Shown: positions 14,869 through 46,273, counted from the first letter of the stretch. The stretch: 46,273 bases of DNA from a virus (IMGVR_UViG_3300005825_000078:1-46273); one strand, 5' to 3'. Made by a program: numbers and translations. The notes: generated by a model not told the origin, from the sequence alone.

Positions 14869-16119
14869 ATGACGGCAGTTGCAGGCCTGAGAGGTACGGG
14901 TACCTCCGATTGGGCCACCGACGAACGACCGAAGAACTTCCGGGAAATGATCCTGTGGAGAGACCCGAACGGTCAAACCCCTTTAACAGCCCTAATGGGC
15001 AAAATGCGGGACGAGAGTGTCGACGATCCGGAGTTCAGCTGGTACGAAGAAGAGCAGAAGCCCGCTCGGATTCAAGCTGGCGCCGCGGCGACGACGGGGC
15101 AAACTTCGCTGACGGTGTATACCGGTACGGACGCAGACGCGACCGCGCTGGACCTCGTCGCTGGCGATGTGTTGCTCGTGGAGAAGTTGGAAGTTGCTGG
15201 AGCAACGTTCCCGTTCGAGCTGGTGGAGGTCTCCTCCGACCCGAGCGTAAGCACGACTCTGGCAATTTCACGAGGTGCTGCGAACACGGGAGCGAACACG
15301 GCGACGATTGCGAGCGGGACGTACCTGCTTAAGATCGGAAGTGCGTTCGAAGAAGGTTCGAGCTCTCCGGAAGCCACGAGCCGCAAGCCCACGAAGATCT
15401 ACAACTACACGCAGATCTTCAAGCATACGTATCGGCTGACGAACACCGCGAAAGAAACCCGGTTCCGTACCGGCGATCCGACGCGGAACGACAAGAAACG
15501 CAAGATGTTTGACCATGCAGTTGCGATGGAGCTTGCGTTCCTGTTCGGTACGCCGTACGAGACGACGGGCAGTGGGAACAAGCCGAAGCGGTACACTGGT
15601 GGCTTGTACCACTATCTGGCGACGAACTATGTCGCTACCACGAAGGAGACGATCAAGATTTGGACGACCACGGCGGTAACAGAGGAAGACATCCTCGATG
15701 CCGTACATCCGGTCTTCGACTTCGGGTATACCGGTGCAGGAAACGAGCGTATCGCTCTGTGCGGAAATGGATTCGCCAACTATCTGAACAAGATTGTAAT
15801 GGCGGATTCGGCGACGCAGTTGTCGTACAACGGAACGATCACGCAGTTCGGGATGAAGTTGACGACGTGGATGGTGCCGCAAGGTACGATCTATATCAAA
15901 ACCCATCCGCTGATGAACACCAATTCGCGCTTCAAGAACGGGTGTTTCATCATCAACCCGGCGGCCATCACGTATCGGCCCATCAGAAATCGCGACACGA
16001 AGTTCAAGGACAACGTGCAAGCGAACGACGATGACGAGACGAAGGGGCTCTGGATTTCGGAGTGTGGAGCAGAGTTCCACCACCTCCGGAGCATGAAGTA
16101 CCTGGCAATTCAGGTGTAA
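14869..16119 (+). CDS. Major capsid protein (416 aa)
   Basis: AAGGAA RBS. Position follows the scaffold gene. The N-terminal region DERPKNFREMILWRDPNGQTPLTALMGKM...DDPEFSW resembles podovirus HK97-fold capsid proteins, from memory. Confidence 0.8.
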   Translation: MTAVAGLRGTGTSDWATDERPKNFREMILWRDPNGQTPLTALMGKMRDESVDDPEFSWYEEEQKPARIQAGAAATTGQTSLTVYTGTDADATALDLVAGDVLLVEKLEVAGATFPFELVEVSSDPSVSTTLAISRGAANTGANTATIASGTYLLKIGSAFEEGSSSPEATSRKPTKIYNYTQIFKHTYRLTNTAKETRFRTGDPTRNDKKRKMFDHAVAMELAFLFGTPYETTGSGNKPKRYTGGLYHYLATNYVATTKETIKIWTTTAVTEEDILDAVHPVFDFGYTGAGNERIALCGNGFANYLNKIVMADSATQLSYNGTITQFGMKLTTWMVPQGTIYIKTHPLMNTNSRFKNGCFIINPAAITYRPIRNRDTKFKDNVQANDDDETKGLWISECGAEFHHLRSMKYLAIQV

Positions 16120-16129
16120 GGAAAGTAGC

Positions 16130-16690
16130 GTGGCGCATCCGCAACAGAAAGCATTTTGCGAGAGGGTGCGCCACGCCCTTTCTGAGTGGTTCGTGAATTC
16201 GAAAGTGGTCGACTTCGGGTCGTTGGATATTAACGGTTCGAATGGGTACTTGTTTAAAGAGTGCGATTACACTGGTGTGGATCTCGACATTGGGCGGAAC
16301 GTGGACGAGGTGATGCCCACACATGAGTACAAGCCCGACGCGCCAGTGGATGTGGTGATTAGCACGGAAATGCTGGAACACGATGAACACTGGGAACTCT
16401 CGTTGAAGAACATGGTTGACATACTGCGGCCCGGCGGGTTGCTTCTTTTCACGTGCGCGACGACCGGGAGACCGGAGCACGGAACGAAGAAAAGCAGTCC
16501 CGACGATAGCCCGTTTACGCCGGAGTACTACCGGAACTTAACGAAGGAAGATGTAATGTCTGTCCTTGACGTAGATGCGTTGTTCAGCGATTACGTGTTT
16601 GAAGTAGACGGCAGTTCGTGCGATTTATACTTCTGGGGGTTGAAGCGTGGTCTGGTTTTGTCCGACACTAGGCAGGCCGAAGCGGCTTAA
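16130..16690 (+). CDS. Class I SAM-dependent methyltransferase (186 aa)
   Basis: Motifs are VVDFGS (I), YTGVDLD (post-I acidic), VDVVISTEMLEH (II) and LRPGGLLLF (III). AAGGAAA RBS. Confidence 0.7.
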   Translation: MAHPQQKAFCERVRHALSEWFVNSKVVDFGSLDINGSNGYLFKECDYTGVDLDIGRNVDEVMPTHEYKPDAPVDVVISTEMLEHDEHWELSLKNMVDILRPGGLLLFTCATTGRPEHGTKKSSPDDSPFTPEYYRNLTKEDVMSVLDVDALFSDYVFEVDGSSCDLYFWGLKRGLVLSDTRQAEAA

Positions 16691-17402
16691 ACAGCTTGCG
16701 AAGTCGTGGGAACGGTGTGAACCGAACACGCCGCTGCATGTGCGGCTGTACGTCCACGACACGCGCATGGCGGATTACAAGGCTATGCGTTGGCCGAAGA
16801 ATTGGTTCTTCTACACGAGTGACAAACTGCGCTGCGGTCCGGCGTTGAATGAGTTTTACCACGATAAGAATCCCACGGCCGATTCCTACGGTTTCATCGC
16901 GGATGATATTGTGTTGCGGACGAAGGGTGGGCTGGGGCACCTTGAGGCGTTAGCCGAGCCTTATTTCATTGCGTATCCGAACGATACGCTCCAACGCGAG
17001 AAGCTTTGTACGCACTTCTGTATCGGGGGCGCGCTCGTGCGTGAGCTGGGCTGGTTCTCGCTGCCGGGACTGCAGCAGTCGATTGACATGCCTTGGATGT
17101 ATATAGGCATGCATACTAGTCTGCTGCGTTATGCTCCGAATGTCGTTTTCCAGCATAAGCACTTTTTAAACGACGGCGCGCCGAAAGATGCGACGTATTC
17201 GATGGTGTATGCTGGAAATTCCACTACGCCAACTGCGGATTTCATTCAGCAAGACACGCGGTTCCTCGAGAAGTACATGGAGAAGCAAATTTTCGAAGAT
17301 GTTGTGAAAATCAAGAAGATGCTCTTTGTGGATACGGAGGATCCTCAGGAGTGGGATGAGCAAGACGCAGCGGACCGCATAATCGTGATGGAGAAAGCGT
17401 GA
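16647..17402 (+). CDS. Glycosyltransferase-like protein (251 aa)
   Basis: It has an N-terminal CPTLGRP beta-strand/loop and an FIADD acidic motif. The start is GTG, immediately after an in-frame stop. The assignment is by pattern only. Confidence 0.5.
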   Translation: MVWFCPTLGRPKRLKQLAKSWERCEPNTPLHVRLYVHDTRMADYKAMRWPKNWFFYTSDKLRCGPALNEFYHDKNPTADSYGFIADDIVLRTKGGLGHLEALAEPYFIAYPNDTLQREKLCTHFCIGGALVRELGWFSLPGLQQSIDMPWMYIGMHTSLLRYAPNVVFQHKHFLNDGAPKDATYSMVYAGNSTTPTADFIQQDTRFLEKYMEKQIFEDVVKIKKMLFVDTEDPQEWDEQDAADRIIVMEKA

Positions 17403-17689
17403 TGGCGAAGAAATCGAAGATGAATGCGAGTGTTGGCGCAGCGGCGGCGTTGCCGGACGCGAAGCCGCGGTTGTGGGTCGACGTCGAGAAGGGAGATATG
17501 GACATTTTGAACGACATGACGGTTGGAAAGACCGTCGTCGTGGCTGTGAAGGGAAAGGTCGTTGCCGTCGCGAAGCGAGAGAATGAGTACGAGGGCGAAG
17601 GCAAAACGGTCAAGGGCGAGTTCCAGCTCGAGAACTACGAAGTGGAACTCATGACGATGAACGATTTCGAAGCGCTGTCGGACGACTAA
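17402..17689 (+). CDS. Hypothetical protein (95 aa, MAKKSKMNAS...)
   Basis: ORF 17399..17689. The ATG at 17402 overlaps the upstream stop (TGATG). GGAGAAA RBS. Confidence 0.65.
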   Translation: MAKKSKMNASVGAAAALPDAKPRLWVDVEKGDMDILNDMTVGKTVVVAVKGKVVAVAKRENEYEGEGKTVKGEFQLENYEVELMTMNDFEALSDD

Positions 17690-17904
17690 TGGGCGTGTAC
17701 TTCGTAGCCGTGACGAATCCCTTCTTCAAGAAAGGGGAGTTTTTGCTCGATAGCGACGACGGTTTCGTGCAACGGACGGTTATGACGAACGAAGGGCCGA
17801 GTGGGTATCAGGGTATTATGGTGCCGTTGGTTACGATACGCCCGTTCGTGATTAAGGTACAAAAGCGTGGAATCGACTGGCGGAAGGGTGGGGCGTTAGG
17901 ATGA
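17689..17904 (+). CDS. Hypothetical protein (71 aa)
   Basis: ORF track. It has a TAATG overlap with the upstream stop. Confidence 0.6.
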   Translation: MGVYFVAVTNPFFKKGEFLLDSDDGFVQRTVMTNEGPSGYQGIMVPLVTIRPFVIKVQKRGIDWRKGGALG

Positions 17905-17913
17905 GAAACGACC

Positions 17914-17938
17914 CTGGAATTCAGCTTCAGAATTCAGC
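17914..17938. repeat. Direct repeat of the GAATTCAG half-site (CTGGAATTCAG-CTTCA-GAATTCAGC)
   Basis: Read directly. It lies in the intergenic spacer before the GT2 gene. The half-site matches the palindromes at 5997 and 8317. Confidence 0.8.
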
Positions 17939-17947
17939 GGGATTATA

Positions 17948-18613
17948 ATGCGCAACAAATATCTCCACGTCGTTGCAATCGTCCCGAGCATGGGGTTTTG
18001 GCGTGCGGAAACTGCCGTGTCGACCGCGATCATGTTTGGCTACTTCGGCGCGAAGAAGGTCGTGGGCGCGGAGACGCAGAAGCTGAGCATCATGTCGCCG
18101 CAGGGGAGTGTCATTGCGGCGCTGCGGCACAGTGCGACGAAGGCAGTGATGCAGAATCCAACGGCGACGCATTTGCTGTTCGTCGATTCAGACATGGATT
18201 TTCCGCGAACGGCTTTGCATCGGCTGTTGGCGTGGGATAAGGACATCGTAGCGGCGAACTGCACGACGCGGAAGCATCCAGTTGAGCAGACGGCGCATGA
18301 TTTCAACCACGATAAGATTGATTCACGCGATAAGGACGGTATTGTAGCAGTGCGGCAAGTTGGTTTGGCTATTGCGCTAATTCGGACGGAAGTGATTAAA
18401 AAACTGCGTCCCCCGCTTTACTTGAACGACTGGATTCCGGCAATTTCGGATTACTGCGGGGAAGACGTTTATTTCTGTCAAGTGGCGCAAGCCGCAGGGT
18501 TCGAAGTGTTCATCGATCATGAGCTGTCGGTCGAGATTGGACACGTGGGGTCGTACATCTACGGCCACAAAGATATCCCTGTGACAACCAACGAGCCGAG
18601 TGATGCAGCGTGA
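17948..18613 (+). CDS. Family 2-like glycosyltransferase (221 aa)
   Basis: It has the N-terminal strand VVAIVPS, a DxD motif (LLFVDSDMDF) and a GEDVYFCQ motif, all typical of the GT-A fold. Confidence 0.7.
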   Translation: MRNKYLHVVAIVPSMGFWRAETAVSTAIMFGYFGAKKVVGAETQKLSIMSPQGSVIAALRHSATKAVMQNPTATHLLFVDSDMDFPRTALHRLLAWDKDIVAANCTTRKHPVEQTAHDFNHDKIDSRDKDGIVAVRQVGLAIALIRTEVIKKLRPPLYLNDWIPAISDYCGEDVYFCQVAQAAGFEVFIDHELSVEIGHVGSYIYGHKDIPVTTNEPSDAA

Positions 18614-19286
18614 TACGGCGGTAAACCAACTTCTCGACCAGTGCGGGCAGCGGCGAAGTGATACGACGCTGCAACAAGCGGCGATCGATCAGTTCGTGAA
18701 TGAGCAGAACGAAGCCGAGCGCGGGCCGTTACTTCCCTGGTTTTTAATTCAGCTGTATGAAAATGCTAGCTTCGTGACCGTTGCTGGGCAGAACTACGTC
18801 GCGACGCCGACCGGGTTCCTGCGTGAGATGGACGACGACCATGCGGATATCGGGTGTTTGTGGTATTACAACGCTGCGGTGTCCGACCCGTGGGTGCCGG
18901 TTTATAAAGAGGATATGTCGATTAATAAGCGTAAATGGGGCGGCGACGATCAAGGCTACCCCCGGCGCTACAGTGTGGTCGGCGGGAACATTTATTTGTA
19001 TCCTACGCCTGCGAACGTGTTGTCGTTGAGGCTATTGGCGTACTTTGCCGATACGTCTCTCACGGGCGCGTATGGAGGCGCGGGAAGTACGACGGAGAAT
19101 CTTTGGTTAACCGAAGCGCCGAAGTTGCTAATCGCACGGGCAGGGAAGGTTGTCGCTCGAGCGTACGCGAAAGATGAAGCGTCGGAAAGGACGTTTAAAG
19201 AGGCAGAGGGTGAGGCTTGGGCCACGCTGCTGACACACGACACTGCTCGTAAAGAGGCTGGAATAATGCGGGCGATGGGGGTGTGA
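18603..19286 (+). CDS. Virion structural protein (possible head-tail adaptor / tail tubular A-like), 227 aa
   Basis: ORF 18600..19286, using the ATG at 18603. The call rests on position after the head module and on size. No motif proof. Confidence 0.5.
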   Translation: MQRDTAVNQLLDQCGQRRSDTTLQQAAIDQFVNEQNEAERGPLLPWFLIQLYENASFVTVAGQNYVATPTGFLREMDDDHADIGCLWYYNAAVSDPWVPVYKEDMSINKRKWGGDDQGYPRRYSVVGGNIYLYPTPANVLSLRLLAYFADTSLTGAYGGAGSTTENLWLTEAPKLLIARAGKVVARAYAKDEASERTFKEAEGEAWATLLTHDTARKEAGIMRAMGV

Positions 19287-19871: not shown

Positions 19872-20080
19872 ATCCCTTTACAGAAGCAAAAGACGGTAAG
19901 TGGTCCTCGTCGCGCTTGTTGGGCGCGGGCATCGTTGTGGCGGTTGTTATTGTGCTCCTTTGGGCAACGGCGGAAGGCGAGTGGGAGACAGCACGGACGC
20001 TGAGTTTGGAACTGCTTCTACTCGCTGGCGCGTTGTACGGAATTAACCGATTTTCTCAACCTAAGCAGGAGGTGACGTGA
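19868..20080 (+). CDS. Holin candidate (70 aa, two TM segments)
   Basis: The GTG at 19868 forms a GTGA overlap with the upstream stop. It has two hydrophobic helices and lies immediately upstream of the endolysin. Confidence 0.5.
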   Translation: MNPFTEAKDGKWSSSRLLGAGIVVAVVIVLLWATAEGEWETARTLSLELLLLAGALYGINRFSQPKQEVT

Positions 20081-20541
20081 ACTTCGACGACGCGTTTGAA
20101 CAGCTAATCGGGCATGAGGGAGGGTATGTGAACCACCCCAACGACCCGGGCGGCGAGACGAAGTATGGTATCAGCAAACGGAGCTATCCGGATGTTGATA
20201 TTAAAAACCTTACGCTGGCCGAAGCGAAGCTGCTCGCTAAGCGTGATTATTGGGACGCCGTGAATGCAGACGCGATGCCGGCAATGCTGAGGTTTGATTT
20301 GTTCGATACGGCATACAACTCCGGCCCGGGTACGGCGAAGCGTTTATTGCAACGGGCGGTCGGCGTTGCGGAGGACGGCGCGGTTGGGCCGCTGACGATG
20401 AAAGCGGTGAAAGCGTTGCACCCCTGGGAGCTGCGCGCGAAGTTTAACGCGTGTAGGCTGTACTTTTTCACAACCCTGTCGACCTGGCCGACGTTCGGAA
20501 AAGGCTGGGCGCGACGGATTTCGGGCAATTTAGTCCTTTAG
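20077..20541 (+). CDS. Endolysin, glycoside hydrolase family 108 with a PG_binding_3-like C-terminus (154 aa)
   Basis: It carries the HEGGYVNHPNDPGGETKYGI signature. AGGAGG RBS. GTGA overlap with the upstream gene. Confidence 0.85.
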   Translation: MNFDDAFEQLIGHEGGYVNHPNDPGGETKYGISKRSYPDVDIKNLTLAEAKLLAKRDYWDAVNADAMPAMLRFDLFDTAYNSGPGTAKRLLQRAVGVAEDGAVGPLTMKAVKALHPWELRAKFNACRLYFFTTLSTWPTFGKGWARRISGNLVL

Positions 20542-20869: not shown

Positions 20870-21352
20870 ATGCTTATCGCAGGTATTGCGATTCTCGTAC
20901 TCGCCGGGACGAGCTGGCTTTTCTACGACCGTTGGCAAGCGGCTGTGGAGCGGGAAGCTACGGTGCGAGGGCAGTATGCGGGCTTTCGGGACGACATTGA
21001 ACGGAAGGGCAATGAGGCGCGTATAGCGGCGGAGAAGAAAAATGTGGATAACTATGCAATTCTCACCAAGCAGATCCGCACCGTTAAGGCTCTTACTAAT
21101 AGGGCTGTCTACGCTGAGCGCCTCTTGCGCGAGCGGCCCCCTGTTCGTCCCGACGGCAGTACAGTGTCCAGTACCACCTGCGATTCGGGCGGAACTGCTA
21201 ACGCCGCTGGAGAATTTGTATCTCTTGTCGACTATCGAGCCCTCGAAGTCCGGGCCTACCGAGACACCGACAAGTGTAACGCCCTCCAAGAAACCGTGAA
21301 AGATTGGGCGGCGAAGGGCTTAGTGACGATCTCGGTTGAGGTGATAAAATGA
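20870..21352 (+). CDS. Inner-membrane spanin (Rz-like i-spanin), 160 aa
   Basis: It has an N-terminal TM segment and a coiled-coil periplasmic domain, and it contains an embedded lipoprotein ORF in the +1 frame. Confidence 0.7.
   Translation: MLIAGIAILVLAGTSWLFYDRWQAAVEREATVRGQYAGFRDDIERKGNEARIAAEKKNVDNYAILTKQIRTVKALTNRAVYAERLLRERPPVRPDGSTVSSTTCDSGGTANAAGEFVSLVDYRALEVRAYRDTDKCNALQETVKDWAAKGLVTISVEVIK
21042..21299 (+). CDS. Outer-membrane spanin (Rz1-like o-spanin lipoprotein), embedded
   Basis: It has a signal peptide with lipobox LSASC and a Pro-rich mature part. It lies entirely inside 20870..21352 in another frame. An alternative ATG is at 21054. Confidence 0.7.
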   Translation: MWITMQFSPSRSAPLRLLLIGLSTLSASCASGPLFVPTAVQCPVPPAIRAELLTPLENLYLLSTIEPSKSGPTETPTSVTPSKKP

Positions 21353-28278: not shown

Positions 28279-28709
28279 CGGTTGAAGGCAACACAGCTCG
28301 ACTCGCACCCGCAGAGGTGTCGTATTCCTGGCATCTCGTAGCGCCTATGATCGACGCGGCGTTGGAACGGGGGCATGGGGAGTTCGATCTTGAGCATTTG
28401 CGGACTTTCGTACTGCAGGGAAACATGCAGCTGTGGGTCGGGTACGAAGAGTCGAAGATTTTTGCGGTGTGTTTAACGGAGTGTGCGACGTATCCGAACT
28501 ATAAGGTGCTTCGGGTCGTTGTACTGGCAGGAAGGGACATGAAAGAGTGGACGCATCTTGAGCCTCTACTTGAGGGATATGCACGTGCTACCGACTGCGC
28601 GTTTATCGAGGGCTGGACTCGGCCGGGGATGGCAAAGGTAGTGGAGCCGCTTGGTTACAAGCCGCACTACACGATCATCCGTAAGCCTGTGACGCAAGGA
28701 CTACACTAA
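28260..28709 (+). CDS. Hypothetical protein (149 aa; GNAT-like fold suspected)
   Basis: ORF track. GAGGG RBS. The only functional hint is the segment RPGMAKVVEPLGYK. Confidence 0.6.
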   Translation: MDIPRLTVEGNTARLAPAEVSYSWHLVAPMIDAALERGHGEFDLEHLRTFVLQGNMQLWVGYEESKIFAVCLTECATYPNYKVLRVVVLAGRDMKEWTHLEPLLEGYARATDCAFIEGWTRPGMAKVVEPLGYKPHYTIIRKPVTQGLH

Positions 28710-29572
28710 TGGGCAGCAGCGGCGGGGGTGGAACGACCACTCAGGTACAAAAGGCGGATCCGTGGTCAGGGCAGCAGCCCTATCTACAGGACATTTTCTC
28801 GCAGGCGCAGCAGAAGTATTACGGTGGACAGCCGCAGTATTATCCGGGAACCACGGTGGCGCCGCAAACTGAAGCAACCACGGCTGCGCAGGGGTATTTA
28901 ACGGGTACGGCTGCGCCAACGTTGCAAGGGCTCGGACAGACGGCAGCAAATACGAGTAATTTCCTCGCCACGGGCGCGCCGTATGTGAGTCAGAATCCGT
29001 ATTTGCAAGATGCCATCGGCGCGGGGATACGACCGATTGTGCGGAACTTTCAGGAGTCGATTTTACCGTCGATTCGGGCGGACTTTGGGCAGGGAGAGAA
29101 CTACGGGAGCTCGCGTAGAGCTTTGGCCACAGGCGTCGCCGCGGGCAGGACGAGTGAAGCGGTGGGAGACGTCGCAAGCCAGATGGCGTCGAGAGGGTAC
29201 GAGACGGGACTAGATGCGCAGGTGAAGAGTTTAGCGCTTCAGCCGCAGGTGGCGGGAGCGGTGAATGCACCGGCTGTGGCGCTTGATGCAGCAGGGCAGC
29301 AGCAACAGGCGCAGATGCAGGATGAGATTAACGCGATGATCGAGAAGTGGAATTATGAACAAACCGCTCCTTGGGCTTCGTTGACGCAGTATCAGAATCT
29401 CGTGCAGGGGAATTATGGAGGGACGACGACGAGTACGAGCCCCACGCCTACGAGGAACCGCACGACGAGTGCTCTTGGTGGGGCGCTTTCGGGCGCAGCG
29501 GCGGGTTCGGCGTTTGGTCTTCCGGGAGCGGTCATTGGCGGTCTTGCAGGACTTGTACTAGGAGGGCTGTAA
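28709..29572 (+). CDS. Internal virion protein candidate with a Gly-rich hydrophobic C-terminus (287 aa)
   Basis: TAATG coupling with the upstream gene. It is Q/G/T-rich, with a C-terminal GGALSGAAAGSAFGLPGAVIGGLAGLVLGGL. It lies before the giant ejection-type protein. Confidence 0.6.
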   Translation: MGSSGGGGTTTQVQKADPWSGQQPYLQDIFSQAQQKYYGGQPQYYPGTTVAPQTEATTAAQGYLTGTAAPTLQGLGQTAANTSNFLATGAPYVSQNPYLQDAIGAGIRPIVRNFQESILPSIRADFGQGENYGSSRRALATGVAAGRTSEAVGDVASQMASRGYETGLDAQVKSLALQPQVAGAVNAPAVALDAAGQQQQAQMQDEINAMIEKWNYEQTAPWASLTQYQNLVQGNYGGTTTSTSPTPTRNRTTSALGGALSGAAAGSAFGLPGAVIGGLAGLVLGGL

Positions 29573-30155: not shown

Positions 30156-31371
30156 AGATCCCTTTACACAACTTCCCGCAGGTTTCAACGCAGGGGAGCC
30201 GACTGATCCGACGGAGATTAAGCGGCGTGAAGACGGCTGGGCGCAGTTGCAGGCGACGCTGTCCGAGCCAAACATGCGCTTGTCCTTAATGCGGATGGGG
30301 TTGCAGATGATGCAGCCTGTGCCGGTTGGACAGACGGGAGTAGGCCACACGGCACAGGCCGCGCTGAGTAGTATGGACTATTTGCAGTATCTCAAGCAAC
30401 AAGAGTTGCAGAATAAACAACGCCAGCAGCAAATCGATTCGACGGTGGACGTGCAGGGCGCGCGGGCGGAACGGGAGAGGGCGGAAACGCGAGATCTGCT
30501 TCCGGCGCAGGTGGCGGAGCAGAAATCGTCTACGAAACGGCGCGAGGCGCTACTGCCTGTCGAGTTGGATACGAAAGCGAAGGAACTTGCCTTGCTCGAC
30601 CTTCAGATCAAAGATGCGCCGAATGAGTCAGAGCGGAAACGCTTGATGCTCAGGCGTGAGGCTGTCGGTCTGGAGTTGGACGAGAAGTATGGTGGTGCGG
30701 ACAAGCAGGCCAGCATCGGACTGAAACAAGCACAAGCGGGGTACTACGGTGCTCTTTCGCGCGCGCAGAAGGGGCTGGAGAAGGAGCGTGAGGCGAAGGC
30801 GTTGAAGGCGTCTAAGATTAAGTGGAAGACGCAGTCGATTGACCGGGACGAGGAGAATCCCTACCGCTTCGTTGTGGTCGATTTCAGCGACGACGGGGAG
30901 AAGCGTATTACGACTGTAGACAACGGAATGCCAGCTGCGGAAGCTCGGGCGCGGGCACGTCAGGAGATTAAGGCGTATTCTAAGGAGCAAATACAAGCGC
31001 GCTTCCCGGGAATGACGGCACAAAAAGCAGAGACAGTTCTGATGAACAAGTTCATGCAAGGCGCGCATGATGTTGTGTTCTTCAACGCACAAGGAGTGCC
31101 GCGTACTGCAGAAGAGTCCACAGGGAAACCTCCGTCGCAAGGACTCGACGCGCCGAAGCTAGACGCACGTCCTCTACCTGCCGCTATGCAAACTTGGGCG
31201 GATGGTGACGGCGTGCCGGATAAGGACGGGCGCTGGTGGGTGAAACGCGGGAATCAACTCGTGCCTGCTACGGGTGATGATATGAAACGCATTGCTGCGC
31301 AGAAAGGTAAGCCGACGAACTACGCGGCAGGAGCAATTACTCCCGCGCCGGTACTGTCAGGAGCACAGTAA
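30139..31371 (+). CDS. Coiled-coil internal virion protein candidate (410 aa)
   Basis: ORF 30133..31371. The ATG at 30139 has AAGGAG 5 nt upstream. Confidence 0.65.
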   Translation: MPTLDEDPFTQLPAGFNAGEPTDPTEIKRREDGWAQLQATLSEPNMRLSLMRMGLQMMQPVPVGQTGVGHTAQAALSSMDYLQYLKQQELQNKQRQQQIDSTVDVQGARAERERAETRDLLPAQVAEQKSSTKRREALLPVELDTKAKELALLDLQIKDAPNESERKRLMLRREAVGLELDEKYGGADKQASIGLKQAQAGYYGALSRAQKGLEKEREAKALKASKIKWKTQSIDRDEENPYRFVVVDFSDDGEKRITTVDNGMPAAEARARARQEIKAYSKEQIQARFPGMTAQKAETVLMNKFMQGAHDVVFFNAQGVPRTAEESTGKPPSQGLDAPKLDARPLPAAMQTWADGDGVPDKDGRWWVKRGNQLVPATGDDMKRIAAQKGKPTNYAAGAITPAPVLSGAQ

Positions 31372-34300
31372 TGGCTGATGAAGATCTGTTGTTCGATCAG
31401 GCTGTGGGCTCGGAAGAAGCGTATGACGTTACGCAGGCGGTGCACTTTCCAACGCCGTCGATGGGAGAGGTTGTAAAGAGCGTTCCGGGGGTGGCACAAG
31501 GGATTGGACAAGAGTCTCTCGGCGGGGGCATTCGAGCGGTTGGGGATGTTATTGGCTCTGAAACCGTTGCCGATATAGGCGCTGGCATAGCGGAGTCGGG
31601 AGTTCGTAACGTCGAAGCTGAAACGCTTCCTGGCATGTCGCTTGGGCAGCAGTTTGTGCAGAGTGGGGGCGCGAACGTACTCGTTGCAGCTCCGGCAATT
31701 GCGTTAGGCGCGACGTTCGGCGTACCCGCTGCGCTAACGGGTATTGGTGCTACGACTTTTGGCTCTACGTATAACCAATCCCGAGAAGCGCAGCTGGGCG
31801 TCGGACGGTCGTTGTTCCACGGCGCAGTGGACGCCGCGATTGAAGCGGGAACGGAGTACTTTGCCGCGAAGTATCTCTTCGGTTCTGCGGGCGGACCCAC
31901 GTTGCGAGATATAGGTAAAGCGTTGGTTGCGGACTACGGAGGTGAAATTGCGGCGACTCTTCTGCAGGATTTAAACGCAAAGGCGAGCTATCGTCCCGAT
32001 TTAACCCTTCGAGATGTTGTAGACGACACGATTCTTACGGCAGGCTCCATGTTGGTGGCGGGGCCGTTGACGGCTGGGTTGGGCGCAGGCTTAACGCACA
32101 CCGTTCGCGGACTTCGTAAGCTACAGGCCAAGGGCGACACTCTTCCTTCCTCCTCCGGTGTCGCTACCCCACCGCCTGTAGTGCCGACGTTGGAGCCTGC
32201 CCTAAGCACCGGGATTCAGGAGCAGAATCCAGCGGTCGTTTCAGCTCTTCCCGTCGAAGCTCTCGCAGAACAGGATTTGCAGAAGTCGCAGTGGGTACAA
32301 ACGCACGCAGAGAAGAGAGGTTATCGTGAAACGGGTGTTGCTATCATGGAACAGGATCCAGCAACGAAACCTATACCACTGGCAACGCGGCCAGAGCTCG
32401 TGGGCAAACAACTCGGCGCTGTTGAAGACCTTAAAGGAGGAGACGTTGTCGTCGCCGGTGAGCTTTGGGAAGGGCATCCGCAGGAGTATATGCAAGTTGT
32501 AATGGAGGAAATACAACATGCTGTTCAGAACATACTGGGCAACAAGGTTGCGGTTGTACTTGCAACAGGACTTATGCGGAACAAGGCAGGGGTCGCAGCG
32601 ACGGCTTTCGCGACTGACGGAACTCCTATTGCGTTCGTCAATCCGCGGCACGTTTACGAAACGATGCTTAGCCGAAAAGCCGAGGGTAAGACGTCGCTAC
32701 ATGCGGAGAGTGAAGCGCAGTACTCGCTATACCATGAAATCGGTCATGTGATCGAACATTTCCTTGTGCAGAATGCAACGCCTGCGCAGAGGCAAGCACT
32801 TGCGGATGAGTTTAGAGTTGCCGCAGAAGGCGTTGCGAACGGCACAATGCCGGCAGTAGAGTTCGTGCAGAAGTACATGTCCCCTTGGAAAATTGCTAAG
32901 GGGTTTGCAATGGACGACTACGGAGGTAAAAAAGGTGAGTGGAGTCCTCTCAGTGCTCAAAGATTTGTGCAGTATGTTGTTTCGCGGCCTGGTACGACTT
33001 ATCCTCCGGTTAAGGACGTTAGTGGCGTCACTGCTAAAACGTTCCTAAGCCTGCTCGCGAAGAAAGGGGGCATGCGGGCGTGGACGGATGTGTTCAATTT
33101 CCAGGAATTCGTCGCGGAGCAACACGCGCGATGGATGCGTAATCCGAAGCGACAGTTGACCTCCCCAATCGGGCAGTTTTTTGGTGAGATGAATACTGTG
33201 ATGAGTCAGTATTTCAACTGGCTCGTACGGAGTAAGAAGATCACGCGGAAGGAACTGAACGCGACTGAGGCGTATAGTAAGTTCATCCGAACGGTGATTT
33301 CGAAGAATAAGAAGGTTACCGAGCCGGTGATGTTGACGAAGGAGGAGTTGAAGAAGTCGAAGAACGCGGCGGTGCGGAAGGGGAAGATTTACTACGACTT
33401 AAACGAAGACGGAAGCGAAGGGCACAATGCGATGTACGCAGGTGTGCCGGAACATCTGTTGACGAATCCAACGGTCGTAAAGCTCGCAGCGAGGTGGCAA
33501 ACGGCGTATGGACACGTCACGAAGTCGCCGTTCTTTCACGCGTGGGGCGGGAACTGGGAGTTGGAACACGCCGTGAGTCTCATGCACACTGACACGAGCG
33601 ACGCAGCCCTTGGCCGGGCGCGAAATGAAGTGCGAAAGCAGGAGTTGAAACTCGTCAACGCACGGAATGAGGCGGTACGCGAAGGTGCGCCGAAGGAAAT
33701 TATCGAGATGCTGGACAAGCTTCGGTCCGACATTCCGCGCGCGCTGAGAGGGGAGTATCCGGAGGTGTGGATCATCCGCGATCCGACAACGCATGAGCCG
33801 AAACAGCTGTATCATGGCGTCTGGGATGAGTTTGAGGGTGAAGAGTTTCTTGAGCGGAAACGCGGAACGGGTGTAGGTGGAGCCGATACGGAGTATGGCT
33901 GGTTCGTAACGGATAATCCAAACGTATCGGCAACGTATGTAAACTGGGCAATGCCTGGGGGCGATCCGTACGAGGATCCCCAGTCCGGTTTTATCATGCC
34001 GATTTATTTGCGGATGTACAAGCCTGTAAACGTTGGGCATCCCGATTCGGGCGTCGTGCGTTCGTACGATTCTTATTCGTACACAAACGCCATGCAAATT
34101 GCCCACGAGCAGAATCGAGGTGGTGCGATTATCCATGACGTCGTCGATGGTGGTATGGGGCCGTATGCGGACTACTCCGACATTCGTTCTTCGAACGTCT
34201 ATATCTTCCGTCGCTCAAGTGACGCAAAGAGCGCATGGCGGAATATGGGTACGTTCAGTGCAAAGTCGAACAATATTCACTGGGACACTGGCAGCGTCGT

Positions 34301-37115
34301 TGCGCAGGGGGATGAAGGACCGTTGCGTAAGGCGCAGAGTGCAGGGCTGGACATTCCGATCGCAGACTTGAAAGAGGCCGGGCAACGGATTCGGCATAAG
34401 CTGTGGATCGTCGAACAACTCCGCGCCTTTGGGCTTGACCTCGGCACGTGGGAGGTCAATCTTCTTCAATGGCAACATATTGCAAAGCGGCTTGGCGGGC
34501 TGCCGTTCGTACAGCGCTTCGTCGACCTCTCTCGAGCGTATACGGAGAATAAACACTCGCTTGTGAAGTATCCGAGCGAATCGGCTGTGAATGCATACAA
34601 GCAGCTCGGCAAGACGCAGATCGATCAGCTGCGCAGGATCATGGAGTTTGAAACAGATGAGGGTGTGCATTTAACGGAGGTGATGGATGGGTACCTTCCT
34701 GACGGCCGTCCGGCTAAGATTCGAAGCATTGCGGACATGGATTCGTTTCGCCGGCATATCGAGTCTGAACTCGGGTTTGTACCCGATGAACTCACCCTCG
34801 ACTACTATCAGCGCTTCCGTACGTCAATGCATAATCAACTTCTGGAACTGCAAAACGCAGCGATGGAGAAAGCGCAGGCCGGAGCAGAGTTGAGTCTTGA
34901 AATGCTAGGCGAGTTTGGTGACCTGTTCTCCGATGCGAAGATGGAGGACATACAGCAATTGCAGGACCTTCTCGACAAGCCGCAGTATCCGTGGAGCCGC
35001 TTTGGACGGTATGCGCTTATCGTCAAGCAGGAAGTAGTGGACGAGAAAGGTAAGAAAACGCAGAAGCCTGTGCATTATCGACACTTCGAAAACGTTCTAG
35101 ATCGAAATAAGGCGTATGACCAGATGACGTTACAAAAGGGCGAGTCGAAAGAGACGTTTGATTATCACAATGACTACACGGGCTTTAGCGTGATTCCGCA
35201 GAGTTTCGTGGAAGTGGTGATACAGCGTGCAGGTTTCGACACGAATAGCGCTGACGCTGATAAGCTCCGTCAGCTCGCCGCCGTGCAGAGGAATACGAAT
35301 CTCTTCAAACGCTTCGAGGAGGACTTCAAACTTACGGACCGAACGGAGCACGATATCGTTAAGGACTTCGCAGACTTCAGTGGGCACTTGGCGGCGTTGA
35401 CGGCGAAGGTGCGGTATCGAAGACAGTTGAGTTTGACCCTGGCCGACGCGCAGAAGGCGATTAATAGGCTTAACGCTGAGGGGATTAACAGCGAGGATTT
35501 GCAAACGCTTAGACACTACATGAAGCAGCAGTTGGACTACGGCATGACGCCGCAGGATGAACTACAAAGCTTTAGGAATATCGTTATGAAGTCAATGCTG
35601 TTCGGTAATGTACGTGCGGCGTCGATGAATTTAACAGCGATTCTGAACACTGCATCGTACGTCGATGCTTTGATTTCGAAGTACAACGTGCTCAGTTGGC
35701 CCTCGATGGTGAAAGTGTTTACAACGGTGATAAAAGACGTTGCAAGTCTGTCGAAGACCTACGACGCGTTGACGCCAGATGAGCGTACGTTTCTGCAGGA
35801 CCTTGAAGGACGGGGGGTGACGGATCAATCGTACGCCTACCACCTGGCGGCTGCGGCGGATAGTGGTGCTTACTATCGTCTCACGCATAGTAAGAGTAAA
35901 TGGGGTACGAAGATCGTCGAAACTGGTATGCTGCCCTTTAGGTTTACCGAACGCTACGGGCGGCGAACTGGAGCGTTGGTGGCCTATCGTATGGCCAAGA
36001 CGCATCCGGAGATTCTCAACGGGAAAACGCCCGCGGAGTTTGCGCAAGATGCGATGGAGTTGACGCAGGGCGATTACACTGCAATGAACCGACCCCGGAG
36101 CCAACAGGGGTTGAAATCGGCGGCGTTGATCTTCTTCACATATACGCAGACGATGGCAACGATCTTTGGCGGTACGCTAGGAGGCGCAACGTCGGCGAGG
36201 TTGTTCTTAGTGTATACCATGCTTGGTGGTTTAATGGGCTTGCCGTTCGCGGAGGATTTAATCAACCTTTCGAACTGGGTATGGAGGCGACTATTTAAGG
36301 GTGAGGAAGATCTGCGAGTCGTCGCGCATCAAGTCGCTGCAGAGATTCCGTACATCGGCCCACATCTTCTTCGCGGGGTGATGCACAATATCGGCGGGTT
36401 CGACCTGAGTCAAAGTATCTCCCTCGGGCGTATTGTACCCGGCATGGACGCGTTTGCGAAGAGCAACTACACGCCGGTAGACGAAGCGGTGGGCGCGTTT
36501 ATGTTCGACCTACTCGGACCGATGGGCGGATATGTACGAGGGTATCTACAAGCCGGTTCCGCCATGCTACAAGATCCAAGCGGTGCGTCGGCTATTCGCC
36601 TGTTGCAAGCGGCCATGCCCGCGCAGAGGCACGCTTTCGACCTCATGCTTTACCAACTGGAGAGTGGAGATCCTAGTACCGTGCGGGGCTACGCAGGGCA
36701 GGTAATTACGAAAGAGGCGGACGGTACGGTACGACCGTTGACGACGAAGGAGATGTTCGGCAAGGCGTTAGGGTTCAACCCCGGTATTATCTCCGTGAAC
36801 CGGGAAACGGACTTTTTGCAGCGAGAAGTTGCGACGTACTGGACGCAGCGTCGGAAACGGTATATGGATGAGTACTGGCAAGCGCACTTGCTCCGCGATG
36901 TGGAAATGAAAGCGGACGTGCGGAATGAGATACGCAACTACAACAATAGCGTACCCGATCGGGCGCTGAAGATCACGTCGAAAGACATTGCGCGATCGAG
37001 GAAACAGCGGGAGCGGATACGTAAGCTGGAGGAGCGTGGCAGCTCGCCAGTTAAGCGGTATCGGACGCTTTATCGTCGAGTTGAGGAAGTGGCTGGGCCT
37101 CAGGCGTATGAGTAA
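31371..37115 (+). CDS. Giant virion (ejection/polyvalent-type) protein with HExxH zincin motif (1914 aa)
   Basis: TAATG coupling with the upstream gene. It has YSLYHEIGHVIEH at aa ~475 and an LYHGVWDEF...GWFVTDNP...IMPIYLRMY region at aa ~830-900. There are hydrophobic segments near aa ~1590-1640. It is the last gene of the late arm. Confidence 0.75.
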   Translation: MADEDLLFDQAVGSEEAYDVTQAVHFPTPSMGEVVKSVPGVAQGIGQESLGGGIRAVGDVIGSETVADIGAGIAESGVRNVEAETLPGMSLGQQFVQSGGANVLVAAPAIALGATFGVPAALTGIGATTFGSTYNQSREAQLGVGRSLFHGAVDAAIEAGTEYFAAKYLFGSAGGPTLRDIGKALVADYGGEIAATLLQDLNAKASYRPDLTLRDVVDDTILTAGSMLVAGPLTAGLGAGLTHTVRGLRKLQAKGDTLPSSSGVATPPPVVPTLEPALSTGIQEQNPAVVSALPVEALAEQDLQKSQWVQTHAEKRGYRETGVAIMEQDPATKPIPLATRPELVGKQLGAVEDLKGGDVVVAGELWEGHPQEYMQVVMEEIQHAVQNILGNKVAVVLATGLMRNKAGVAATAFATDGTPIAFVNPRHVYETMLSRKAEGKTSLHAESEAQYSLYHEIGHVIEHFLVQNATPAQRQALADEFRVAAEGVANGTMPAVEFVQKYMSPWKIAKGFAMDDYGGKKGEWSPLSAQRFVQYVVSRPGTTYPPVKDVSGVTAKTFLSLLAKKGGMRAWTDVFNFQEFVAEQHARWMRNPKRQLTSPIGQFFGEMNTVMSQYFNWLVRSKKITRKELNATEAYSKFIRTVISKNKKVTEPVMLTKEELKKSKNAAVRKGKIYYDLNEDGSEGHNAMYAGVPEHLLTNPTVVKLAARWQTAYGHVTKSPFFHAWGGNWELEHAVSLMHTDTSDAALGRARNEVRKQELKLVNARNEAVREGAPKEIIEMLDKLRSDIPRALRGEYPEVWIIRDPTTHEPKQLYHGVWDEFEGEEFLERKRGTGVGGADTEYGWFVTDNPNVSATYVNWAMPGGDPYEDPQSGFIMPIYLRMYKPVNVGHPDSGVVRSYDSYSYTNAMQIAHEQNRGGAIIHDVVDGGMGPYADYSDIRSSNVYIFRRSSDAKSAWRNMGTFSAKSNNIHWDTGSVVAQGDEGPLRKAQSAGLDIPIADLKEAGQRIRHKLWIVEQLRAFGLDLGTWEVNLLQWQHIAKRLGGLPFVQRFVDLSRAYTENKHSLVKYPSESAVNAYKQLGKTQIDQLRRIMEFETDEGVHLTEVMDGYLPDGRPAKIRSIADMDSFRRHIESELGFVPDELTLDYYQRFRTSMHNQLLELQNAAMEKAQAGAELSLEMLGEFGDLFSDAKMEDIQQLQDLLDKPQYPWSRFGRYALIVKQEVVDEKGKKTQKPVHYRHFENVLDRNKAYDQMTLQKGESKETFDYHNDYTGFSVIPQSFVEVVIQRAGFDTNSADADKLRQLAAVQRNTNLFKRFEEDFKLTDRTEHDIVKDFADFSGHLAALTAKVRYRRQLSLTLADAQKAINRLNAEGINSEDLQTLRHYMKQQLDYGMTPQDELQSFRNIVMKSMLFGNVRAASMNLTAILNTASYVDALISKYNVLSWPSMVKVFTTVIKDVASLSKTYDALTPDERTFLQDLEGRGVTDQSYAYHLAAAADSGAYYRLTHSKSKWGTKIVETGMLPFRFTERYGRRTGALVAYRMAKTHPEILNGKTPAEFAQDAMELTQGDYTAMNRPRSQQGLKSAALIFFTYTQTMATIFGGTLGGATSARLFLVYTMLGGLMGLPFAEDLINLSNWVWRRLFKGEEDLRVVAHQVAAEIPYIGPHLLRGVMHNIGGFDLSQSISLGRIVPGMDAFAKSNYTPVDEAVGAFMFDLLGPMGGYVRGYLQAGSAMLQDPSGASAIRLLQAAMPAQRHAFDLMLYQLESGDPSTVRGYAGQVITKEADGTVRPLTTKEMFGKALGFNPGIISVNRETDFLQREVATYWTQRRKRYMDEYWQAHLLRDVEMKADVRNEIRNYNNSVPDRALKITSKDIARSRKQRERIRKLEERGSSPVKRYRTLYRRVEEVAGPQAYE

Positions 37116-38355
37116 CCTCCTCTTCTGAATTATAAACGAGATAAATATGCGCACCTATTTGCTGCTCGATTATCTCGCCAGATAGTATTGCTTCCTGCAA
37201 CGCATCGTTCAACTCCTTTGGCGATAGAATGGTATGGCTGCGCATTAGTACTTGCTTCCTTACTCTTTTCAATCGGCGTATCTCCCCCACTACAGACGAG
37301 ACGGTTTTCGCGGCGAGGGTCATACCGATCTTTTCAAACACCTGTGGAATATACACTTCTGCACTACGTAGAACGGCATCGGCGCGTTGAAGAATTTCGA
37401 CGGTTATGTCCATCGCGTCTCCTTCTGCAGCCGTGAGGACCATTGCGAGTTTGTGTAATTGCGTCTGTCTACGAGAAAGAACGGCTTCGAACTTTTGACT
37501 CTGTAAATGGGGCGGAGGGTTTTTGTGCATTTCAACATACCATTCCGACCCCCATTCGTACGCGGCTTTCGTCAGTTTCATTTCGCCTAGCATGTCGCCG
37601 ATTATGTTGATATCGTTCACGAGCCGGGCGCGCAAGGCAGTTTGGTCGTGCTGCTGTGCGAGTTTCTGATACGGGACGAGCTGCTGTTTAACGTCACCGT
37701 AGATCCAAACGCAACGACTCGCGAAGCCGCCGCCAATTGTAGTTTCCGTCGTGTTGTCTTTTAGCCACGACGGCGTTGTAGCCGCAATGAGGTTTAGCCA
37801 AGGATTTAATATCACGGATGAACCGTGCATTAGCGTTAAGCGTTCCCATTGCGGATTTGTGCCGTCCCACAAATCGGTCATAACATCGACCATGTCCGCA
37901 TTTCGCAAAGACATGAAGGGCCCGAGTTCTTTCGCCACGGCGGAAATACAGGACATAGTTAACTGTTCGCCCATAAAGAGTTCGCCTTCGTCTACGCGCG
38001 CGACGTGTCCAGGTCCAACTGGTACTGTTATTGTAGCCTCTGCTAAACGCTGTAGTAAAGCCTGCCAAGAAGTGCTGTTCGGAGCGAAGCGCACCGTGGG
38101 TACTTCGCGCAGTAGTTCTTCCCCCATTTTGATAGAGGTAGACTTTCGGGCGACGCCGGGGGGTCCGACGAATACTATATAGAAGTTTGGGTAGTAATTC
38201 AACTGCCCGTCTTCTATCCATACTTTTCTCCCAAGTGCACCGGCGATAGTAAACACTCCAGTCCAGAGACGAAACTGAACTGGCGATTCTGTGTGGTCCG
38301 TATATTCTAAAAACGTACGTAACCAATCATTGCACTGCCTAGTTCCACGACTCAC
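37051..38355 (-). CDS. DUF3987-type P-loop NTPase (replicative helicase candidate), 434 aa
   Basis: Walker A VGPPGVARKST preceded by YPNFYIVF. The layout is typical of DUF3987/D5-like proteins. It lies next to the DNA polymerase. Confidence 0.65.
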   Translation of the reverse strand: MSRGTRQCNDWLRTFLEYTDHTESPVQFRLWTGVFTIAGALGRKVWIEDGQLNYYPNFYIVFVGPPGVARKSTSIKMGEELLREVPTVRFAPNSTSWQALLQRLAEATITVPVGPGHVARVDEGELFMGEQLTMSCISAVAKELGPFMSLRNADMVDVMTDLWDGTNPQWERLTLMHGSSVILNPWLNLIAATTPSWLKDNTTETTIGGGFASRCVWIYGDVKQQLVPYQKLAQQHDQTALRARLVNDINIIGDMLGEMKLTKAAYEWGSEWYVEMHKNPPPHLQSQKFEAVLSRRQTQLHKLAMVLTAAEGDAMDITVEILQRADAVLRSAEVYIPQVFEKIGMTLAAKTVSSVVGEIRRLKRVRKQVLMRSHTILSPKELNDALQEAILSGEIIEQQIGAHIYLVYNSEEEVTHTPEAQPLPQLDDKASDTA

Positions 38356-46010: not shown

Positions 46011-46273
46011 CCCTTCTCCTCTTGGCTGTCGTGCAGGAGGGCGCGGGCAGCATCGATGGTGTTCATCAGTGCGGACCCCGCTCGCAGAAGTTCGCGCGAG
46101 TCGTTACAGGCATGGACGCCGGCAATCAACGTGATCGCGGATTCTTTCACGGCCTGCAACGCCGCCTCCAGCGCGAGGATGCGCTGCTCCAGTGCGGTTG
46201 ATTCCTTGCGAGTACGGGCCATGAGAACCTCGATGCCGTTCTCCACCGTCCGCGCACGTTCTCGTGGCACTCC
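46007..46273 (-). CDS. Hypothetical protein, 3' part of the junction-spanning gene (5' end continues at 162..121 in the circular form)
   Basis: ORF 46007..46270. The frame is open to the window end, and the last 120 nt duplicate 1..120. Confidence 0.6.
   Translation of the reverse strand, partial: GVPRERARTVENGIEVLMARTRKESTALEQRILALEAALQAVKESAITLIAGVHACNDSRELLRAGSALMNTIDAARALLHDSQEEKG
46154..46273. repeat. Terminal direct repeat, copy 2 (identical to 1..120)
   Basis: Base-for-base identity with 1..120. Confidence 0.95.

Follow-up and report, generated by a model that had tools for sequence, protein, structure and literature searches.

A Candidate Capsid O-Glycosylation Cassette Between the Capsid and Adaptor Genes of an SU10-Like Phage

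Introduction

To our knowledge, mycobacteriophages are the only phages for which enzymatic virion glycosylation has been demonstrated in experiments (in 2023), and in them it reportedly alters the recognition of the phage by antibodies. Other viruses offer related cases: the capsid protein of STIV is glycosylated, and in the chlorovirus PBCV-1 (protein A064R) cytoplasmic glycosyltransferase domains of the GT-A fold and methyltransferase domains build a methylated glycan on the capsid protein Vp54. This text is concerned with a locus in the viral DNA IMGVR_UViG_3300005825_000078, whose whole stretch of 46,273 nucleotides (nt) is referred to as the window, where a methyltransferase gene, two predicted glycosyltransferase (GT) genes and two small genes lie between the major capsid gene and the head-tail adaptor gene. 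A comparison of ∼100 related phages suggests that these enzymes attach a small sugar chain to two threonines of the capsid protein, and we lean toward regarding the five genes as a phage-encoded machine for capsid O-glycosylation, made late with the head proteins.

In mycobacteriophage Corndog, a methyltransferase and GTs are reported to modify the capsid and the tail tube, according to PMC11600133 and PMC12619734, which cite Freeman et al. 2023 (Cell Host Microbe). As for cyanophages and podophages of Gram-negative or diderm hosts, our literature search returned no report of capsid glycosylation.

The window begins and ends with the same 120 nt (1-120 = 46154-46273), which leaves 46,153 unique bp; because of this terminal overlap the genome is counted as complete, whether it is a circular assembly of ∼46,153 bp or has a terminal repeat. 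Its minus strand carries the replication genes and its plus strand a long late operon, in the order terminase, portal (SU10_portal), scaffold-like gene, major capsid gene, the five open reading frames (ORFs) of the cassette, and adaptor (SU10_adaptor). All five are on the plus strand, and they are labeled MT (16130-16690), GT1 (16647-17402), s96 (17399-17689), s71 (17689-17904) and GT2 (17948-18613). The cassette is bounded by the gene of the 416-aa major capsid protein (14869-16119, + strand; Pfam SU10_MCP 6e-42; PDB 9in6_M, "major capsid of VP1", E 1e-94) and by that of the adaptor (18600-19286, + strand; Pfam SU10_adaptor 3.4e-11). The packing is tight: 10 nt separate the capsid gene from MT, the overlaps measure 44, 4, 1 and 14 nt, and the one larger gap, 43 nt, precedes GT2. 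The initial annotation had described five co-oriented ORFs between capsid and adaptor, and the positions, the strand and the packing were all confirmed. It had also held that they are made when virions are assembled; here the packing and the orientation are as described, but scans for promoter and terminator consensus sequences gave no signal above chance, so that co-transcription with the late genes is deduced from packing and orientation only.

Co-evolution of GT2 with Two Capsid Threonines

The capsid protein is of the SU10 type, with an HK97 fold and an extra region of ∼100 aa. A first sample of its lineage consisted of 80 loci from IMG/VR, all with related capsid genes (43-73% identity), and a GT2 homolog lies between capsid and adaptor in 51 of them. 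The presence or absence of this gene could then be set against the capsid sequence itself, in an alignment of 513 columns with 60 non-redundant capsids from loci with GT2 and 41 from loci without it.

The difference is concentrated in one loop. In the window it reads IKIW-T266-T267-T268-AVTEED, and the codons of T266-T267-T268, in the motif IKIWTTTAVTEED, occupy 15664-15672 on the plus strand, as checked by translation. Capsids that accompany GT2 have the pattern F/W/Y-x-T-T-P-T-E, while those without it show, for example, F-G-A-A-V-T-E, Y-T-A-A-A-T-E or F-T-A-P-Y-N-L. Serine or threonine is found at both T267 and T268 in 53 of the 60 capsids with GT2 vs 2 of the 41 without (Fisher 2e-18). Shared ancestry was taken into account in two ways. 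Pagel's test of correlated evolution between GT2 and the doublet, on a neighbor-joining (NJ) tree with the loop masked, gave a likelihood ratio of 41.5 (p ∼2e-8), and GT2 was gained or lost at least 7 times on the capsid tree. In seven independent sister pairs, each with one member carrying GT2 and one lacking it, T268 (7/7) and T267 (6/7) are the top 2 of all 513 columns; in the sign-flip control, this outcome is reached by 1 of 128 patterns, the true orientation.

Whether or not GT2 is present, T271, the loop's third threonine, is conserved, and it looks like a helix N-cap. Since the doublet, unlike T271, is variable, it behaves like a dispensable surface feature that is kept only with the enzyme. 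T267/T268 is the strongest candidate, a predicted O-glycosylation site, and its co-evolution with GT2 is the main new evidence for the capsid protein as acceptor.

A second, weaker signal is found at aa 73-84, where in the same seven pairs the columns of aa 77 and 78 reach 5/7 and those of aa 73, 76 and 82 reach 4/7; by these independent-pair scores the segment aa 72-84 (AAATTGQTSLTVY; 15082-15120, + strand) is enriched in serine and threonine in phages with GT2, and aa 73-84 is a possible additional site. The initial annotation had placed a candidate substrate in the T/S/A-rich capsid region at aa 70-150. That region does contain the secondary signal, but the strongest candidate lies outside it. 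In this comparison neither indels nor S/T tails at the C-terminus of the capsid protein were found to go with GT2, and the capsid C-terminus has no S/T run.

The GT2-less relatives VS-ABTNL-3 and VP1 (PDB 9in6) have an "F-G-x-G-G" variant of the capsid loop, and 9in6, as the solved capsid of a GT-less relative, can be used for mapping the loop.

The Predicted Enzymes

GT2 (221 aa, + strand) is the core of the cassette. Its only Pfam match is Anp1, at 22.6 bits vs a cut-off of 28.8 and over profile positions 109-187 of 263; membership of Pfam Anp1 or CAZy GT62 was rejected, the gathering threshold not being reached. PDB sequence searches with GT1 and GT2 gave nothing useful, and for this reason fold prediction was needed for both. 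The AF2 model of GT2 (pLDDT 95.1, pTM 0.91) is a single-domain GT-A fold, and Foldseek returned 223 PDB matches at E≤1e-3, almost all of the 50 listed being GT-A-fold proteins, with STIV A197 at the top and LH3, ColGalT1 and Mnn9 behind it. The best viral structural match, in BFVD, is to the GT domain of a 788-aa protein that bears the name FkbM methyltransferase. Forty-two homologs were found, and across 38 diverse homologs no variation occurs at R60, D80 and D82 (the DSD motif), D173 (in GEDVYF), D190, S194 and H199. The family is large: an exhaustive profile search gave 1,825 cluster representatives at E≤1e-30. GT2 is thus predicted, from its modeled fold and its invariant residues, to be a metal-dependent, compact and soluble GT-A glycosyltransferase. 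The earlier proposal of a glycosyltransferase with DxD and GEDVYF motifs was borne out by the fold search and the homolog alignment; as for the "GT2-like" label then given to 17948-18613, it is right at the level of the GT-A fold, and nothing closer is justified.

GT1 (251 aa, + strand) has no Pfam match, and it matches a PHROG family annotated as glycosyltransferase at 1.5e-19. Its AF2 model (pLDDT 93.6) finds exclusively GT-A enzymes among the top PDB matches, including AvpGT, the fucosyltransferase WrtF, PcManGT and TarS/TarP, and D86, D87, D113, H123, H170, H172 and D181 are invariant in 22 homologs. The acidic motif at the end of beta4 is DD and not the canonical DxD. The description of GT1 as a GT-A-like protein therefore agrees with its PHROG match, its fold and its invariant residues, and the motifs quoted for both enzymes are present in the translations, FCPTLGRP and GFIADD in GT1 and VDSDMDFP and CGEDVYF in GT2. 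Elsewhere, the Streptomyces phages Daubenski and Comrade (Stanwilliamsviridae) carry a trio of genes, GT-GT-HldE-like nucleotidyltransferase (L169 6363-8072; L170 5372-7090).

MT (186 aa, + strand) matches Pfam Methyltransf_23 with 38.3 bits, above the gathering cut-off of 27, and phrog_32762 at 5e-49. These profile matches identify it as a class I S-adenosylmethionine (SAM)-dependent methyltransferase, in agreement with the initial annotation. What would such an enzyme methylate? A bacterial homolog with 52% identity lies within an O-antigen cluster, together with rmlBACD, an ABC-2 transporter, GT2 and GT4 enzymes, PGM and GT9. In addition, the slot after the capsid gene, which holds a Methyltransf_23 enzyme in the window and in L005, L006 and L009, is taken in L007 by a rhamnosyl-O-methyltransferase/CmcI-like protein and in L004 by an NAD-dependent nucleotide-sugar epimerase or GDP-mannose-dehydratase-like enzyme. 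MT is a probable sugar O-methyltransferase that tailors the glycan. Its family is very large: more than 2,100 homologs reach an identity of ∼50% or above, most of them ∼175 aa long and on phage-sized contigs; the context of the homolog in the large phage L174 held nothing informative.

NCBIfam and PADLOC searches of the cassette gave no informative match.

Conservation and Modular Build of the Cassette

Microcystis phage Mel-JY34 is the only cultured phage found to share the arrangement, in the form capsid - GT2 - s96; its genome is collinear with that of the window, its capsid protein (XAI96495.1) carries the motif AFSTTPTVN, and its GT (XAI96494.1) is annotated as hypothetical. A literature search on Mel-JY34 and on phage VP1 found nothing relevant to capsid glycosylation. 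In some uncultured loci (L028, L047), GT2 is the sole gene between capsid and adaptor.

A scan with the GT2 profile reached at least 525 viral loci, and the best 80 of these all come from a further lineage of podophages, here called the second, in which capsid and adaptor are likewise of the SU10 type. Here the GT is present in 80 of 80 loci, and the order portal-scaffold-capsid-h100-GT-adaptor is found in 79 of them, the exception being L122, which has its GT upstream of the portal gene. The survey of related genomes proposed in the initial annotation thus found capsid-GT-adaptor synteny kept in two lineages. In the second, the gene h100 (100 aa, no Pfam match) separates capsid and GT in nearly every locus (L002 2065-2367; L089-L168).

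The accessory enzymes follow GT2 in a fixed hierarchy. Among 101 non-redundant loci, GT1 occurs only together with GT2 (15 of 15 with GT2; 0 of the 41 loci that lack GT2), and all four loci with MT have both GT1 and GT2, so that the nesting GT2 > GT1 > MT is strict. Natural fusion proteins join the same activities: P0185 and P0242 combine GT1 and GT2, and P0036 combines a GT2-type domain with a Methyltransf_24 domain. Taken together, the synteny, the nesting, the fusions, the swaps in the MT slot and the homolog in an O-antigen cluster lead us to see the cassette as a probable modular locus for building a glycan, in which GT2 would be the core and probably the initiating enzyme, GT1 the extender, and the methyltransferase or epimerase the tailoring enzyme.

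The two small ORFs had been listed in the initial annotation as of unknown nature, and this description still fits only one of them. The product of s96 (96 aa, acidic C-terminus, + strand) belongs to a widespread family of ∼90-140 aa with the acidic C-terminal motif ELxEDD, encoded directly after the capsid gene in 38 related loci, with or without GT2; apart from the window (17399-17689), examples are L001 6665-6949, L006 6602-6910 and L008 3441-3734. The family member in L006 matches Pfam PF21628 (Gp10-like) at 2.5e-8, and the family profile aligns with PDB 3j40_N, the gp10 capsid staple of epsilon15, over nearly the full length and weakly (E 0.13); the s96 protein of the window itself gave no match to gp10 or PF21628. 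In these phages, where it is unannotated, s96 is probably an epsilon15 gp10-like capsid decoration (staple) protein rather than an enzyme, and if so, head genes and GT genes are interleaved.

With regard to s71 (71 aa, + strand), no Pfam, PHROG or NCBIfam match was obtained, and the family has no assignment. It is conserved: 12 loci have a homolog immediately upstream of GT2, loci with GT2 account for 15 of its 16 occurrences, and the consensus reads MxLYxVxxPNPFFxxGxFxEDxxxGFVQ…GxMVP…VRPYxVKIxxxGLD. It may be a partner or a specificity factor of GT2. Homology between s71 and the h100 gene of the second lineage was considered and rejected (hhalign probability 0.2%).

As a more general observation, the capsid-adaptor interval of loci L004-L088 is a hypervariable hotspot for cargo genes, 0.5 to >6 kb in length, and besides GT genes it holds unrelated families (clusters c2, c4, c6 and others), some of them encoding proteins of >800 aa with repeats.

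Proposed Mechanism and Alternatives

For the capsid O-glycosylation that we favor, the sequence of events can be pictured as follows, the order of the steps and the identity of the sugars being inferred along with them. GT2 would transfer the first sugar from a nucleotide-sugar of the host onto the major capsid protein, most likely at T267, T268 or both, which lie in the loop joining a predicted beta-strand to a helix, probably within the A-domain; the S/T-rich segment aa 73-84 would possibly be used too. GT1, as the second GT-A enzyme, would extend this sugar, and MT would O-methylate the glycan, on our assumption that its target is the sugar and not a protein. In this process s96 would probably act as a capsid decoration protein and not as an enzyme, and s71 maybe as a partner of GT2. 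The resulting glycan coat of the virion may bring surface shielding, stability or changed adhesion. The initial annotation had already suggested that a virion protein is glycosylated, possibly with a methylated sugar, and the synteny, fusions, nesting, slot swaps, O-antigen homolog and co-evolution now speak for it by computational means.

However, is the capsid protein the acceptor, or the sole one? The same chemistry might act on another virion protein, namely s96, the fibre or the S/T-rich protein encoded at 28709-29572. The interleaving of a decoration-protein gene with the GT genes would suit this idea, and so would the 100-aa gene that, in the second lineage, consistently separates the GT from the capsid gene; moreover, for the mycobacteriophages, PMC12619734 reports both capsid and tail tube as modified. 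What makes it unlikely in our view is that GT2 can stand alone between capsid and adaptor with no s96 nearby (L028, L047), that s96 can do without GT2 (L034, L037), and that the co-evolution signal, tested for the capsid protein only, points to the capsid protein.

Another possibility is that the virion is unmodified and that the enzymes act late in infection on an envelope glycan of the host, such as the O-antigen of lipopolysaccharide, the capsule or exopolysaccharide. This could destroy or mask the receptor on infected cells and debris, so that the progeny are not lost. Known seroconversion genes are morons of temperate phages and lie near attachment or lysogeny modules, whereas the GT discussed here is near-core and has a fixed place within the head module in two lineages that look lytic, and no integrase was detected among the ORFs scanned. 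The closest cellular homolog of MT does belong to an O-antigen cluster, and the structural neighbors of GT1 include WrtF, TarS/TarP and chondroitin synthases; yet for both GTs a compact, soluble protein is predicted, and the modification of a host glycan leaves the co-evolution with T267/T268 of the capsid unexplained. Phage GTs that change the serotype of the host are well known (see also PMC12619734), and still we hold this explanation to be improbable for the present locus.

The GTs might also glycosylate the phage DNA just before packaging, as an anti-restriction hypermodification. Pfam scans of 48 ORFs of the complete genome found no TET/JBP, thymidylate-synthase or hydroxymethylase genes. 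Elsewhere in the genome these scans recovered a ParB-N6/N4 methylase, a PolA-UDG protein, a DUF3987 protein (which we take to be primase/helicase-associated), an AAA_24 protein and a PD-(D/E)XK nuclease. This matters because known DNA glycosylation needs a hydroxylated base, made either by a thymidylate-synthase homolog or by a C5-methyltransferase together with TET/5mYOX, and the genes of such systems are clustered with those of nucleotide metabolism (bioRxiv 10.1101/2023.12.21.572611; PMC13326640). There are points of likeness: phage GT-A enzymes that glycosylate DNA have a similar R...DxD...ED(Y/F) signature and resemble TarP (bioRxiv 10.1101/2023.12.21.572611), DNA glycosylation occurs late, before packaging (PMC13326640), and distant homologs of GT1 are found in Streptomyces phages among nucleotide-metabolism genes. 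But the MT of the window is a Methyltransf_23 enzyme and not a DNA C5-methyltransferase, Mel-JY34 has no annotated enzymes for hydroxylated bases either, and with no thymidylate-synthase-like or TET gene in the complete genome, DNA glycosylation is very unlikely.

Least credible of all is that GT2 serves chiefly in structure or assembly and has a non-catalytic GT fold, like vaccinia H3, for although it sits where head-completion and decoration genes usually sit and H3 is among its structural matches (rank 47), R60, D80, D82, D173, D190 and H199 are invariant across its 38 diverse homologs, and it is found together with, and also fused to, sugar-tailoring genes and a second GT.

Capsid O-glycosylation is thus the reading that we retain, and a number of observations weigh against it. 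To begin with, it is a wholly computational prediction, and the acceptor cannot be read from a GT-A fold. The association with the threonine doublet has its exceptions, since 7 of the 60 capsids with GT2 lack the doublet and 2 of the 41 without GT2 have it, and the GT-less Vibrio phage vB_VspS_VS-ABTNL-3 (L282) carries TT in the loop. The absence of GT2 was called over loci of ∼15 kb, so that a GT located elsewhere, as in L122, could escape; the capsid tree is a simple NJ tree; and the capsid protein of the second lineage does not carry the same Thr-Thr motif. With regard to the accessory enzymes, the MT family is also found in phages of ∼35 kb whose examined 17 kb contain neither GT1 nor GT2 (L171 7345-7872), which means that its link to sugars is not exclusive, and the trio of the Streptomyces phages, formed by distant homologs of GT1 (∼25% identity), lies among DNA-metabolism genes.

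Other Features of the Genome

Downstream of the cassette, a GH108/PG_binding_3 endolysin gene (20077-20541) adjoins a 160-aa ORF with an N-terminal transmembrane segment (20870-21352), in which an 85-aa ORF with a signal peptide and a lipobox-like LSASC motif is embedded in the +1 frame (21042-21299). The two look like an embedded spanin pair, and such a pair beside this endolysin is consistent with a diderm host. Further along, 31371-37115 encodes a giant late protein of 1,914 aa, probably an internal/ejection or tail protein, which is collinear with a hypothetical protein of 1,894 aa in Mel-JY34.

On the minus strand, 38339-40714 encodes a family A DNA polymerase of 791 aa with N-terminal uracil-DNA-glycosylase-superfamily and 3'-5' exonuclease domains, and 40942-42270 a 442-aa protein in which a ParB N-terminal domain is fused to an N6/N4 DNA methylase. 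A "DNA modification methylase" of Mel-JY34 is collinear with the latter.

Significance

If these predictions are true, the phenomenon extends to a very large set of podophages, for the most part uncultured, that infect Gram-negative bacteria and cyanobacteria. The glycan itself would be modular, with a second GT, O-methyltransferases and nucleotide-sugar epimerases as its variable parts, like an O-antigen locus for virions. One can go further and propose that capsid O-glycosylation by a dedicated GT-A enzyme encoded between capsid and adaptor and belonging to a family of thousands of members is widespread and ancestral in the SU10-like environmental podophages of diderms and cyanobacteria, that the glycan has been diversified in a modular way, and that Thr-Thr sites have been gained and lost with the enzyme. 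Capsids with a glycan coat would then be frequent in aquatic viromes and no special trait of mycobacteriophages; we put this forward tentatively, as a generalization that is possible and still rather doubtful.

What would a phage gain from such a coat? Possible benefits are greater stability, less non-specific adsorption or grazing, masking from binding factors of the host or the environment, and adhesion to mucus or exopolysaccharide. The enzymes show no detectable homology to the mycobacteriophage proteins compared with them, which would imply, if the proposal is true, independent origins and a general selective value of a capsid glycan coat. For those who wish to take up the question, the finding gives a concrete site (T267/T268), a cultured test system (Mel-JY34) and a solved GT-less capsid (PDB 9in6). 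Small soluble protein-O-glycosyltransferases, as predicted here, could also serve the engineering of glycosylated phage particles.

Comparison with Known Systems

Corndog and the window both have methyltransferase and GT genes within the operon of virion structural genes. In Corndog, gp35-gp38 are a methyltransferase and three GTs inside the head module, in the order portal - MT - GT - GT - GT - ... - capsid; Che8 is named alongside it among the mycobacteriophage systems. The initial annotation had invoked mycobacteriophages with GT genes next to the capsid gene as a precedent. The cassette of methyltransferase and GT genes in the head module is indeed a valid parallel, but that of Corndog lies between portal and capsid and not beside the capsid gene, upstream of it where the cassette of the window is downstream. 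Homology to Corndog gp35, gp37 and gp38 (gp36 was not compared) was rejected, with E 0.14-3.5 and a probability of <1% in BLASTP and hhalign, and the Corndog methyltransferase belongs to TylF/Methyltransf_24 whereas MT belongs to Methyltransf_23. The glycans of mycobacteriophages are reported at the C-terminus, and the site predicted here is internal; the hosts of those phages are actinobacteria, while that of the window is probably a diderm, given the spanin-like pair and a relative that infects Microcystis. In view of the lack of homology, the different position and the internal site, the cassette is analogous to the Corndog system and not a member of it.

The GT-A enzymes of phages that hypermodify DNA are small as well, with R...DxD...ED motifs and a TarP-like structure (Pyle et al.; bioRxiv 10.1101/2023.12.21.572611). 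They cluster with C5-methyltransferase and 5mYOX genes or with thymidylate-synthase homologs, whereas the GTs of the window are fixed in the head module.

By structure, the best match of GT2 is STIV A197 (PDB 2c0n; E 4e-11, TM 0.67 normalized to the target), which is likewise a small GT-A enzyme of a virus, stand-alone and with a DxD motif. The identity between the two is 18%, and A197 comes from an archaeal virus with a double-jelly-roll capsid, its acceptor being likewise unproven. The next-best matches, the GT domain of LH3, ColGalT1 and yeast Mnn9/Anp1 (GT62), are enzymes of the eukaryotic secretory pathway with 11-15% identity to GT2, and of these LH3 and ColGalT1 glycosylate proteins directly.

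PBCV-1 is the more distant case: a eukaryotic giant virus, with atypical N-linked glycans and another capsid fold, it was compared by fold only. Nevertheless, its combination of glycosyltransferase and methyltransferase is mirrored by the natural fusions of a GT2-type domain with a methyltransferase.

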